From a virus (lineage: Duplodnaviria; Heunggongvirae; Uroviricota; Caudoviricetes): a stretch of 19,706 nucleotides of DNA. Location: positions 1-19,706 of the IMG/VR virus record IMGVR_UViG_2617270940_000004; one strand, written 5' to 3'. Shown here one piece after another: positions 7,737 to 11,383 of the stretch. Below the pieces are notes generated by a model, which was not told the DNA's origin, made no database searches, and saw nothing but the letters and a program-made list of their open reading frames with translations. The first letter of the stretch is position 1, and each line of letters opens with the position of its first letter. The translations under genes were made by a program, and so were the position numbers.

Positions 7737-7755
7737 TAGGTAAGTACTTACCATT
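7736..7755. promoter_or_regulatory. Family A palindromic site (putative operator)
   Basis: ATAGGTAAGTACTTACCATT; core GGTAAGTACTTACC is a perfect 14 bp palindrome. Confidence 0.55.
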
Positions 7756-8330
7756 CAAAACGCCACTAACCAGTGATACAATCTATCCGCTTCCGGATAC
7801 TTTCGGCAGCTCGACCTGATGGGTGGGGGATAGCGTCACTGGCGTCAGGTTTAAAAAAGCTCACTACCAGCGTAGAACCGGCACCGTTTAGGGGTTGGGG
7901 AAGGGGGAACCAAAGTGGGCAGAGAGAAGGGTCACTTTATGATTGTCGAGTCTGGAGTGTTTCGAGAGGTTGAATCCAGTACTCCCCTTCATAAAGTGTG
8001 GGAAGATCTCGGTTCTGGGGTGCTGTCATCCATAACTTCCCAAGCCTAAGCTGGCAGTAGACTTAGGTCATAACTTTTCAGGTTATGAAACGACCAGGTT
8101 GGTGAGGAAATTTTGTACTCACCTCCCTGGGAGAGTATTACCTGAAAAGACAACCTCTCACTTCGTTCGAGGTGAACTTCACTCACTTCGTTCGTTCAGT
8201 TCAGGTTTTATTAAAACCTGTTCTGGGAAGTAATTTTTCTTTTCTAAAAAATTTTTAATATTTACACGCACGCGTGCGCACACGCGCGAGGGGAAAAAAA
8301 ATCGTCGCGGCGCGCGATTCTGGAGCCAAA

Positions 8331-9031: not shown

Positions 9032-9052
9032 GCGGCTGGCTTGGCCAGCCGC
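9032..9052 (+). terminator. Hairpin, weak terminator candidate
   Basis: Stem GCGGCTGGC / GCCAGCCGC with loop TTG, followed by AACTCTTTCT (poor U-tract). Confidence 0.3.
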
Positions 9053-9081
9053 AACTCTTTCTGACACTGAATGGAATCCAC

Positions 9082-9582
9082 ATGGCCCGTCAAACGTCTT
9101 TCACTTCTTTCAATAAACGTCCCCGTTCAATTCGCCTGGTGCTGACCGAGCTGTTTAGTGGTCGTGTTTCCGCACGCCTTACGGAACTGGAAGAACGAGT
9201 GTTTGAACTGGAGAAGCGCATTAATGCGCAAGCTACCGCCATAGCTAATCTGGGCACGACAGTAGGCATGGAGAAGGTGCGTAATAGCGTCGCTTCTCGT
9301 GTGTTGCGTGAAACCCGGACACACAAGGACAGTTCTCATGGAAAATTTTCAACGAAATCGACTGAAGCCAATGGCCTACGGAGTGATTTTGGCAACTCTG
9401 GCAGCGATTACCGTACCAGCCGGTCAGAGCCTTTTGATGCCGGGCACAGCTACTTCCACTGCCACCACAGCCTTGCAGATGACACCCCTGCCCGAACGAC
9501 CTCCTGTCTCTCTGGATGGGATGCTGATGGACACGATTCCAGCTCGACCTGCGACTCCGGATCTTCCTTCTGCTGTGACTGA
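9082..9582 (+). CDS. Hypothetical protein with predicted coiled-coil segment; 3' half doubtful
   Basis: 166 aa ORF; residues ~30-75 (RLTELEERVFELEKRINAQATAIANLG) look coiled-coil; C-terminal third is S/D/G/C/H-rich and overlaps an alternative-frame ORF (9338-9595), so the 3' extent is uncertain. Confidence 0.35.
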   Translation: MARQTSFTSFNKRPRSIRLVLTELFSGRVSARLTELEERVFELEKRINAQATAIANLGTTVGMEKVRNSVASRVLRETRTHKDSSHGKFSTKSTEANGLRSDFGNSGSDYRTSRSEPFDAGHSYFHCHHSLADDTPARTTSCLSGWDADGHDSSSTCDSGSSFCCD

Positions 9583-9595
9583 GGCTATTGTATGA
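9338..9595 (+). CDS. Hypothetical small membrane/secreted protein (alternative frame to 9082-9582)
   Basis: ATG 9338 with AAGGA 9 nt upstream; hydrophobic segment MAYGVILATLAAITVPA; stop overlaps start of next ORF (ATGA at 9592-9595). Confidence 0.4.
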   Translation: MENFQRNRLKPMAYGVILATLAAITVPAGQSLLMPGTATSTATTALQMTPLPERPPVSLDGMLMDTIPARPATPDLPSAVTEAIV

Positions 9596-9780
9596 AATGG
9601 AACTTCCAGAAATTCACCTTGATGATTGTTGGCTTTACCGTTTTTTTGTTTAGCGGCTGGATCATGAATCTGGTGAAACTTGTGAACGATGGTGATCTCC
9701 AGTCTCATGCCGGAGTGACACTTGCGCGTGTCGTGGGCATTTTCGTTGTTCCGGTGGGCGGCATCCTCGGGTTCTTTTGA
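9592..9780 (+). CDS. Hypothetical small membrane protein (62 aa, two predicted TM helices)
   Basis: GAGG 7 nt upstream; FTLMIVGFTVFLFSGWIM and VVGIFVVPVGGILGFF hydrophobic stretches. Confidence 0.45.
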   Translation: MKWNFQKFTLMIVGFTVFLFSGWIMNLVKLVNDGDLQSHAGVTLARVVGIFVVPVGGILGFF

Positions 9781-9802
9781 TGCTGAATGATTTTCTGCAT
9801 TG

Positions 9803-9820
9803 TTAAAACAAATTGTTTAG
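9803..9820. promoter_or_regulatory. Family B palindromic site (putative operator)
   Basis: TTAAAACAAATTGTTTAG; half-sites AAACAA / TTGTTT around a central base. Confidence 0.5.
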
Positions 9821-9846
9821 ACAAATGATTAATGAGAGTTAACAAC

Positions 9847-9870
9847 AAGGGCCGCTGACGGCCCTTTTGT
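9847..9870 (+). terminator. Rho-independent terminator candidate
   Basis: Stem AAGGGCCG / CGGCCCTT with loop CTGA, followed by TTGT. Confidence 0.55.
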
Positions 9871-9886
9871 ACTGAATGGAAAACGT

Positions 9887-10702
9887 ATGTTTGAGGTAAC
9901 TGCACACGCTCCCAGCACCACAGGCTTACATGCCAGGCCATCGATGACCAGTCAGGAGATCGCCGAAATGGTCGGCAGTCGCCATGACAGCGTAAAACGC
10001 ACCATTGAAAGACTCGCTAAATCCGGCGTTATTACTTTTCCACCAATGGTGGAAAAGCCCACTGCCGGGCGTCCGGCTACCTTTTACTTGTTCGAAGCCG
10101 AACAGGGTAAGCGCGACAGTATCGTTGTCGTGGCACAGCTTTCTCCTGAATTTACCGCACGTCTTGTTGATCGGTGGAGAGAGCTTGAATCCATGTTTGC
10201 CTACCACGGAACGCCTGCTATTCCGCGTACCTATAAAGAAGCGCTGGTTCATTTGCTGCGCCAGGTTGAGGAAAACGAGCGTCTGGAGAGTGAGAACGAG
10301 GCGTTGGGCGTAGCACTATCCAACGCAAAGCCAAAAGCCATTCTCATGGACACCATTTGCGGCACTGCTGATGAACTTTATGGGTTGAATGAAGCCGGTC
10401 GCATTCTCGGCACGTCCGGGGCTGTTCTGGGTGCGCTGATGGACTCGCTGGGTGATGTGTACGTTAAGCGCAAATACACCACTGTTAACCGCCAGTTCCT
10501 CAAGATCTTCATTGACCGCGGATATGGCAAAAACGTTGTCATCGGAAACGGTCGCAACCAGGCCAAGTTCACCTTTAAAGGGCTTTGCTTTGCAGCTGTG
10601 AAACTAATTGCAGCCGGGTTGATTGCCTCCAGCGCCATTGAATATGAGCCGTGTCGTGAGCATGTCGAACGTGCAATGAAGGAATCCAAACGTCTTCATT
10701 GA
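9887..10702 (+). CDS. Phage antirepressor-type regulator (Rha-like N-terminal domain + ANT/KilAC-like C-terminal domain)
   Basis: N-terminal MTSQEIAEMVGSRHDSVKRTIERL resembles the Rha family; C-terminal ILGTSGAVLGALMDSLGDVYVKRKYTTVNRQFLKIFIDRGYGKNVV resembles the ANT domain. Start uncertain (9887 or 9944). Confidence 0.55.
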   Translation: MFEVTAHAPSTTGLHARPSMTSQEIAEMVGSRHDSVKRTIERLAKSGVITFPPMVEKPTAGRPATFYLFEAEQGKRDSIVVVAQLSPEFTARLVDRWRELESMFAYHGTPAIPRTYKEALVHLLRQVEENERLESENEALGVALSNAKPKAILMDTICGTADELYGLNEAGRILGTSGAVLGALMDSLGDVYVKRKYTTVNRQFLKIFIDRGYGKNVVIGNGRNQAKFTFKGLCFAAVKLIAAGLIASSAIEYEPCREHVERAMKESKRLH

Positions 10703-10773
10703 CCGTCAGTATGGACGTCCACCTTTATGTAGCGTTTGGCCACCTTTTCAGTCACGTCACAATAACACAATTG

Positions 10774-10791
10774 AGAAAACAACTTGTTTAA
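10774..10791. promoter_or_regulatory. Family B palindromic site with conserved upstream ATAACA box (putative promoter/operator)
   Basis: AGAAAACAACTTGTTTAA preceded by CAATAACACAATTGAG; lies ~20 nt upstream of the 10811 start codon. Confidence 0.55.
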
Positions 10792-10810
10792 AAACATAAG
10801 GAAAAAACAC

Positions 10811-11383
10811 ATGTGCGACAAATGCAAAAAAACTAATGCCAAAGTTGAAAGCGTGATTAAAAAAGTTGGTGCGGCCGAACTGGTTGAGATCATGGGTCTT
10901 GTGGCTGGTCACGAAGACGACGCCTCCCCTATTGACCGCCTTTTCAGCGTTCTCAAGTTCTCAAGCATGATTGATGATCCGATTGAAATTGTGATGCTGG
11001 CGCGTCATTTCGGCGAAGCGTATCTGGAAGAGAAAGAACGCGCCGACAAACTTCAGGCAACTCTGGAAATGGTAAGCAAGCCGAAGTGCTCACCGGATTC
11101 AGTCAAGGCAGATGAAACCAACGCCAGCAAAGATCGTGAAATCGCCGGGTTGAAGTTTTCTCTGGCGATGTTGCTGGCCGCCTTCAAACTGATGTCTTCC
11201 CAGGCTGGATTCAAAATGCCTGAGCTGAACAGCGACGATCCGATGGCCGTTCGCCAGCTGCTGGGGGCAATGGCCGACCAGCTTGACGACACCAAGAGCC
11301 GTCTTGAAGACATGATGCGCGAGCTGACCCATCGCTACGACCTGAACAAACAGCCGCAAAAGATGCAGCCTTTACATCATTAA
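10811..11383 (+). CDS. Hypothetical protein
   Basis: ATG 10811 with AAGGA 8 nt upstream (ORF track TTG start 10784 lies inside the operator motif); 190 aa, N-terminal CDKCKK. Confidence 0.5.
   Translation: MCDKCKKTNAKVESVIKKVGAAELVEIMGLVAGHEDDASPIDRLFSVLKFSSMIDDPIEIVMLARHFGEAYLEEKERADKLQATLEMVSKPKCSPDSVKADETNASKDREIAGLKFSLAMLLAAFKLMSSQAGFKMPELNSDDPMAVRQLLGAMADQLDDTKSRLEDMMRELTHRYDLNKQPQKMQPLHH

Follow-up and report, generated by a model that had tools for sequence, protein, structure and literature searches.

A putative Rha–KilAC regulator gene behind a terminator-like hairpin is an optional, domain-swapped cassette of SSU5/pHCM2-type phage-plasmids

Comparison of related elements indicates that the rha gene of an SSU5/pHCM2-type phage-plasmid is an accessory, domain-swapped cassette, carried by about 149 of 736 related plasmids. 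On balance, we think it probable that this cassette encodes a chimeric regulator built from a Rha domain, a connecting helix and a KilAC domain, that it is expressed by read-through and that its product acts as an accessory modulator of lysis–lysogeny or SOS circuitry.

The window, by which we mean the whole stretch of 19,706 nucleotides that was analysed, is the early, DNA-metabolism region of an SSU5/pHCM2-type phage-plasmid, as judged from its synteny with SSU5 genes 79–110 and with plasmid pLAO4. Its products include a nucleotide pyrophosphohydrolase, ThyA, DHFR, an exonuclease, methyltransferases and RNase H, and a scan of the window found no tRNA or tmRNA genes. Over the stretch 9500–11000, DNA identity amounts to 98–99% with IncFIB non-mobilizable E. 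coli plasmids of about 106–115 kb and to 93% with Salmonella phage SSU5. The gene and its immediate neighbours are as follows:

9082–9582 and 9592–9780, plus strand: two upstream co-directional genes (166 aa and 62 aa), annotated as coding sequences in pLAO4 and SSU5
9887–10702, plus strand: rha, 271 aa, ATG start, predicted Rha–KilAC two-domain regulator
10757–10789, plus strand: promoter/operator-like element of the next gene (CACAAT-N13-AGA-AAACAACTTGTTT), the downstream limit of the rha cassette

The two upstream genes match PHROG 10411 and 6006, both entries without a function, and the genes found at the position of this pair in relatives give Pfam TerB (faint) and DUF3927 matches.

The rha open reading frame lies exactly where the original prediction had placed it, at 9887–10702 on the plus strand, with an ATG start and 271 aa. 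We consider it a real gene because its product is 99% identical to the RefSeq 'Rha family transcriptional regulator' cluster P0001 (304 members), because it has an ortholog in SSU5 (gp93, SSU5_093 'anti-repressor Ant') and because the dN/dS ratio against that ortholog is 0.12, a value that indicates purifying selection. Full-length homologs are found in SSU5-like elements of Klebsiella, Enterobacter and Salmonella. In comparison with SSU5 gp93, the neighbours, the upstream site and the hairpin are the same, and no functional difference was seen at 93% DNA identity. In the SSU5 record the annotated start is an internal Met 27 codons further downstream, and the full 813-nt reading frame is intact in SSU5. 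Because the ATG follows a hairpin by 14–17 nt in the E. coli, SSU5, pHCM2 and Klebsiella versions and the frame stays open across the diverged first 19 codons, the upstream ATG is the likely start, and the SSU5 annotation probably mis-calls it. The gene is already named in public databases and is a routine Rha–KilAC regulator, albeit a diverged member; for the 271-aa protein, PADLOC returned no match and NCBIfam no relevant match.

The AlphaFold model of the whole protein (pLDDT 75) consists of a winged-helix N-terminal domain, a helix of about 45 residues, a second winged domain and a terminal helix, and together with the profile searches and alignments it divides the gene into four parts:

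9944–10189, plus strand: Phage_pRha winged-helix domain (Pfam PF09669), residues 20–101
10232–10363, plus strand: long connecting helix in the secondary structure of the model, residues 116–159
10307–10624, plus strand: diverged ANT/KilAC domain with a MerR/excisionase-like winged helix-turn-helix (HTH) fold, residues about 141–246
10625–10699, plus strand: helical tail with a conserved Cys (yePCRehV), residues 247–271 (alignment columns 320–359; model helix 254–270)

The product had been predicted to combine a Rha-like N terminus with an ANT/KilAC-like C terminus. A Pfam search bore out the first half, finding Phage_pRha at residues 20–101 above the cut-off by a narrow margin (31.9 bits against a gathering cut-off of 29.9, E = 2e-7, profile positions 1–90 of 91); close homologs score 26.7–38.3 bits on the same profile. 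In the model this domain has the order strand-helix-helix-strand-strand-helix of a winged HTH fold. Published work places Rha among winged-HTH domains and suggests that it is regulatory (PMC8951638).

The second half proved harder to reach. Pfam ANT (PF03374; gathering score 25.3 bits) gave no match at E ≤ 10 to the whole protein, to residues 101–271 or to residues 147–271, and a Klebsiella ortholog of 65% identity (P0008) scored 20.0 bits on this profile, below the gathering score. For a comparison restricted to the C-terminal parts, sequences were cut after the RWxELE motif, so that the shared N-terminal domain could not drive the result, and a profile of the SSU5-group C termini was aligned with one of the C termini of proteins that have PF03374 matches; hhalign returned a probability of 99.7% and E = 4e-27 over 129 aligned columns. 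PHROG 63 'anti-repressor Ant' was matched by the whole protein with E = 4e-43 and by its C-terminal 171 residues with E = 1e-12, and a Rha+ANT protein (P0106; ANT E = 9e-33) is collinear with the 271-aa protein at 44% overall identity. In the whole-protein model the C-terminal domain again has the order strand-helix-helix-strand-strand-helix. A C-terminal domain model (pLDDT 80) found its best Foldseek matches among the predicted structures of BFVD in entries named 'Antirepressor protein', 'Antirepressor protein KilAC domain' and 'KilA protein' (E = 2e-6 to 8e-3, TM about 0.5). PDB sequence-profile searches found neither a solved relative nor a solved KilAC structure. The C-terminal-only alignment, PHROG 63, the collinearity with P0106 and the fold searches thus support the assignment of the C terminus as a diverged KilAC domain that is reached only by sensitive methods. 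The original prediction had named failure of the domain searches to support Rha/ANT homology as the outcome that would speak against it; Pfam supported the Rha part and missed the ANT part, and the ANT/KilAC-like C terminus stands on the profile–profile alignment, PHROG 63 and the viral KilAC structure matches instead of a direct Pfam hit.

Between the two domains, the connecting helix, which in the model is probably a linker or dimerisation element, begins just past a conserved IPxT(Y)xEAL motif (residues about 111–120 in the alignment). Both the Rha and the KilAC domains look, in the predicted structures, like DNA-binding-type winged-HTH folds. Ordinary enterobacterial prophage Rha+ANT/KilAC proteins, such as P0106 and P0096 ('phage antirepressor KilAC domain-containing protein'), are collinear with the 271-aa protein and share its RWxELE...IPxT..EAL junction. 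They differ in that their C-terminal domains are only about 25–30% identical to that of the 271-aa protein, which misses the Pfam ANT threshold, in that they lack the Cys-containing tail of 25–30 residues, which occurs only in SSU5-group proteins, and in that their genes mostly have no tight upstream hairpin.

The gene is a mosaic as well as optional, as three comparisons argue. First, relative to the pHCM2/Enterobacter allele (P0025), residues 158–271 are about 97% identical, whereas the region of residues 20–101 is a different pRha subtype in P0025, and DNA homology with this allele stops just inside the rha start. Second, residues 10–101 are 78% identical to Rha of chromosomal E. coli prophages (P0064), in which the C terminus is unrelated. 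Last, the Salmonella Tennessee plasmid NZ_CP014995 lacks the segment that begins just past the end of the 62-aa gene and runs through the rha stop codon, with intact flanks that include the element at 10757–10789. By tblastn, the SSU5-type C-terminal domain was present in 149 plasmid records, compared with 736 records that have the downstream backbone gene. The cassette would comprise a small hairpin, a palindromic site, the terminator and rha, with a small membrane-protein gene on one side and the next promoter of the early region on the other.

By analogy, the protein would most likely be an accessory modulator of lysis–lysogeny or SOS circuitry. In the Listeria phage phi10403S protein AriS, KilAC inhibits the SOS response and regulation of the phage falls to an exchangeable N-terminal domain (PMC9043618). 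AriS and AriS-like proteins keep KilAC and exchange the N-terminal domain (AntA/B, Bro-N or pRha), as seen in rha, and the 271-aa protein has both features by which AriS-like proteins are defined, a C-terminal KilAC domain and an exchangeable N-terminal regulatory domain (PMC9043618). By the same analogy, the variable N-terminal domain would target DNA and the backbone-specific C-terminal domain would contact an effector. The literature searched yielded no experimental study of SSU5-type Rha proteins, and two narrower functions were weighed against this broader one.

An antirepressor role in the classical sense, in which the protein binds and inactivates the master repressor of the phage-plasmid or of co-resident prophages and so leads to induction, is possible, although we hold it to be doubtful. 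The label comes solely from the family name and a diverged domain: the protein belongs to a Rha/KilAC group that is so labelled (SSU5_093 'anti-repressor Ant', PHROG 63), and KilAC occurs in Ant1/Ant2 of P1/P7 (PMC9043618). A C-terminal domain that does not change on the SSU5/pHCM2 backbone, even as N-terminal domains are swapped, would fit a backbone-specific protein partner, an N-terminal domain common to lambdoid prophage Rha proteins would permit cross-talk, and the SSU5-like Cyrano is ciprofloxacin-inducible (PMC9928086). However, the gene is accessory, being missing from syntenic relatives and carried by about 149 of the 736 related plasmids, and therefore cannot be the general induction switch of the SSU5-like family. 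Both domains are moreover modelled as DNA-binding-type winged-HTH folds, and the literature calls the function of KilAC unclear (PMC9043618). An operator-like palindrome and a terminator-like hairpin stand upstream of rha; no LexA box, Rfam RNA or antisense promoter was found at the gene. A conserved LexA box instead fronts another small gene (16085–16384), in parallel to N15, which has a LexA-regulated antirepressor (PMC11652158).

We regard as unlikely the more specific proposal that the protein is an AriS-like SOS modulator, whose KilAC domain would damp the host SOS response along the RecA/LexA axis and whose Rha domain would regulate phage-plasmid genes. The KilAC domain of Listeria AriS inhibits the SOS response on its own, the retention of KilAC beside a varying N-terminal domain (PMC9043618) is the modular pattern observed here, and the SSU5-like family is SOS-inducible, as in Cyrano (PMC9928086). 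AriS, however, has an AntA/AntB N-terminal domain and comes from Firmicutes (PMC9043618); the KilAC domain of the 271-aa protein is so diverged that Pfam misses it, and its SSU5-specific tail has no counterpart in AriS-type proteins. The broader reading, an accessory modulator of lysis–lysogeny or SOS circuitry, is the one we retain.

The control regions of antirepressor genes, such as P1 immI with the c4 RNA, N15 immB with the CB RNA and the LexA-regulated AntC, and P22 ant/sar, have as a common theme termination or RNA-based gating. Like its P1 and N15 counterparts, rha carries an antirepressor family label, resides on a phage-plasmid and lies directly behind a terminator or leader. Unlike in P1, N15 and P22, no regulatory RNA family match and no antisense promoter was found at rha, which does not lie in an immunity region beside a repressor gene and is dispensable in many relatives. 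The leader of rha contains the following features:

9781–9799, plus strand: weak hairpin immediately behind the 62-aa gene's stop codon (MFE fold of 9781–9900)
9806–9818, no strand assigned: 13-bp palindrome AAACAAATTGTTT, an operator-like site
9847–9870, plus strand: intrinsic-terminator-like hairpin (8-bp stem with six G-C pairs, CTGA loop, short U-tract)
9871–9881, plus strand: ribosome-binding-site segment ACTGAATGGAA, with an exact second copy at 9066–9076

The first of these hairpins has a perfect stem in SSU5 and pHCM2 (GCCGAA/TTCGGC) and a T.T mismatch in this window. The main hairpin, AAGGGCCG-CTGA-CGGCCCTT at 9847–9866 followed by TTGT up to 9870, has a folding energy of −14.9 kcal/mol (z = −4.1), and none of 200 shuffled sequences folded as well. 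Its U-tract is short (UUUUGU), relatives having five U's (TTTTTAC, TTTTTGC or TTTTTAT), and the hairpin was listed by a laxer terminator scan and not by a strict consensus scan. The rha ATG at 9887 lies 17 nt past the hairpin end at 9870, the distance first claimed. The segment ACTGAATGGAA occurs only twice in the window, both times between a GC hairpin and an ATG, and SSU5 has it only at the two homologous places.

In relatives, the slot between the DUF3927-like gene and rha is occupied by hairpins with five different stems (GGGCCG/CGGCCC, GGAGC/GCTCC, GGGGC/GCCCC, GGGGC/GCTCC and GGTCGCTAA/TTAGCGACC), each followed by a T-tract and located 14–65 nt before the ATG. Klebsiella plasmids have the hairpin AAGGAGC-TTCG-GCTCCTT, the stem of which overlaps the DUF3927 stop codon; with 14 nt from the end of its T-tract to the rha ATG, there is no space for a promoter. 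In three further relatives (GGGGC-TTT-GCCCC; GGGGC-TTCG-GCTCC; GGTCGCTAA...TTAGCGACC) the hairpin lies 22–65 nt before the ATG. Structure and position are thus conserved across about five independent sequence classes and sequence is not, a pattern that would be expected of a functional terminator between the TerB-like/DUF3927-like genes and rha. Such tight hairpins are not a general property of Rha/KilAC genes: in a set of 80 Rha-family loci from viral contigs, a hairpin lay no more than about 25 nt from the start at the four SSU5-like loci and at no other. As most Rha/KilAC genes of integrated prophages have no tight hairpin, it is, in these comparisons, a trait of the SSU5-like lineage.

With this arrangement, transcripts of the 166-aa and 62-aa genes would need to read through the hairpin to reach rha. 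The relatives compared have no conserved promoter between the upstream gene and rha and the ATG follows the hairpin by 17 nt, so attenuated read-through is probably the mode of expression, a view drawn from the anatomy of the leader and its positional conservation. The earlier suggestion that expression may depend on read-through is supported by the comparative anatomy of the hairpin slot. Most likely, rha would be transcribed solely by read-through from the two upstream genes, which would hold its level low relative to theirs. No antisense (sar-like) promoter with at least 8 of 12 matches was present in the 5′ end of rha, and Rfam gave only noise, both across the whole window at gathering thresholds and for 9400–10100 at permissive thresholds.

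It is improbable, in our judgement, that the hairpin simply ends the upstream unit and serves as a 5′ stabilising leader stem-loop, with rha transcribed from its own promoter. The proposed promoter, a weak sigma-70-like match at 9800–9829 (TTGTTA, an 18-nt spacer, AATGAT), holds the palindrome exactly in its spacer, the CTTTTG...AATGAT spacing is common to the region and to promoter elements of the family, and in two relatives the 45–65-nt gap between hairpin and ATG could hold a promoter, one of them having another palindrome there. The match, however, is just 8 of 12, its −10 element is lost in SSU5 and pHCM2 (ATTAAC), and the whole segment is missing in Klebsiella and in a further relative (L092), whose hairpins lie directly against the upstream stop codon. 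Read-through expression is consequently favoured. A further elaboration of read-through appears distinctly unlikely: that the site, terminator and rha leader form a regulated attenuator, gated by a binder of the AAACAANTTGTTT palindromes or by a phage antiterminator, and that the Rha–KilAC protein would couple the phage-plasmid to lambdoid prophages through its N-terminal domain and to the SOS response through KilAC. If true, this would give the SSU5 family an equivalent of the P1, N15 and P4 anti-immunity modules.

The 'family B' site that had been placed before the hairpin is almost certainly the palindrome AAACAAATTGTTT at 9806–9818. This palindrome occurs in 8 copies in the window against 0.09 expected, a count that none of the shuffled sequences reached, and in 20 copies across the SSU5 genome, nearly all just upstream of genes. 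The usual layout is (G/C)ATAAT, 13 nt, AAGA-AAACAANTTGTTTA, a further 10–25 nt and then a ribosome-binding site and ATG, sometimes with a second palindrome copy 51 bp upstream; the copy at 9806 is without the (G/C)ATAAT-N13-AAGA promoter part that is present at most others. From their distribution, the AAACAANTTGTTT palindromes look like a dispersed operator network. That Rha itself is the DNA-binding factor for these palindromes and controls their promoters, including its own upstream site, is very unlikely and was rejected: two modelled winged-HTH-like domains joined by a long helix would fit a protein that binds palindromes as a dimer and one site lies 68 nt upstream of the rha ATG, but the sites are spread over the whole SSU5 genome while rha is accessory, are also present in relatives from Klebsiella (L005, L092), are the same in pHCM2 despite its unrelated subtype of Rha N-terminal domain, and persist in the rha-less Tennessee plasmid (L004), so the sites are not those of Rha.

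No LexA box lies at or close to rha; the window has a single exact CTGT-N8-ACAG, at 16085. This strong LexA-box-like palindrome stands 17 nt before an 88-aa open reading frame at 16118–16384 and is conserved in SSU5. Given the conserved box, the ciprofloxacin induction of Cyrano and the precedent of the LexA-regulated antirepressor of N15, the gene of the 88-aa reading frame is a competing candidate for the role of SOS switch.

Clinical Enterobacteriaceae commonly carry SSU5/pHCM2-type phage-plasmids, and the literature searched contained no description of a repressor, operators or an antirepressor for these elements. Together, these comparisons mark rha as an optional, domain-shuffled cassette and not as the switch of the family, with its expression probably set by terminator read-through. 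The palindromic operator-like sites found genome-wide and the gene behind the conserved LexA box say more about regulation in this region and offer handles on the induction of SSU5/pHCM2-type elements.

The hairpin, palindrome, terminator and rha, which encodes a 271-aa Rha-KilAC regulator, are all absent as one unit (window approximately 9781-10702) from the Salmonella Tennessee plasmid NZ_CP014995. This unit is a clean presence/absence polymorphism between phage-plasmids that are otherwise syntenic. The rha stop codon is spanned by a direct repeat of 22 nt whose copies, at 10506-10527 and 10693-10714, match imperfectly (82% identical). Immediately in front of the gene stands one copy of a short repeat:

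Window 9066-9076 and 9871-9881: exact 11-nt repeat ACTGAATGGAA

Just these two copies occur in the window, each downstream of a GC-rich hairpin (9032-9052 and 9847-9866, respectively) and followed 5-6 nt later by an ATG, that of a 166-aa gene and that of rha. In Salmonella phage SSU5, ACTGAATGGAA is found only at the two homologous places, and the pair may represent a duplicated terminator-RBS junction. The SSU5 ortholog of rha is annotated with a different start:

SSU5 NC_018843 80855-81670 (10390-11205 of the SSU5 locus L002): SSU5_093 region

The RefSeq start of SSU5_093 is an internal Met, 27 codons past the conserved ATG, and was probably mis-called, because it would cut into the N-terminal winged-helix pRha domain. 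In one Klebsiella oxytoca-type relative (GCA_021046885.1 contig, locus L091, 2440-2500), a different 10-bp inverted repeat, AAACTACGAA-TTT-TTCGTAGTTT, lies between the terminator and rha and suggests that the gene has another operator or promoter there.

Elsewhere, a non-coding gap of approximately 540 bp (7737-8273) upstream of the RNase H gene contains the 13-nt direct repeat CTCACTTCGTTCG (8157-8169 and 8182-8194) and GC-rich palindromic runs, CGCACGCGTGCGCACACGCGCG ... TCGCGGCGCGCGA, at approximately 8262-8320.

A second element recurs across the window:

Window 9806, 10777, 11975, 15701, 16017, 16394, 16445 and 18009: palindrome AAACAANTTGTTT, 13 bp each

SSU5 carries 20 such sites. A (G/C)ATAAT -10-like hexamer usually lies 13 nt upstream of the palindrome and a start codon 10-25 nt downstream; some promoters have an extra copy 51 bp upstream (16394/16445), often directly behind a terminator hairpin (15701). 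AAACAANTTGTTT is a scattered, intergenic, operator-like element of SSU5-type phage-plasmids, a set that looks similar to a dispersed repressor-operator network; no description of it was found in the literature searched.

Another potential regulatory site precedes a small ORF:

Window 16085-16100: exact LexA-box-like palindrome CTGTTTATACATACAG
Window 16118-16384, + strand: 88-aa ORF, PHROG 2100 (family of unassigned function)

The ORF, for which Pfam gives no match, begins 17 nt downstream of the palindrome. The site is conserved in SSU5, where its counterpart, CTGTTTATATATACAG, lies ahead of SSU5_103. In this phage-plasmid family, which ciprofloxacin induces, the ORF is a candidate for a small regulator or an antirepressor under SOS control.
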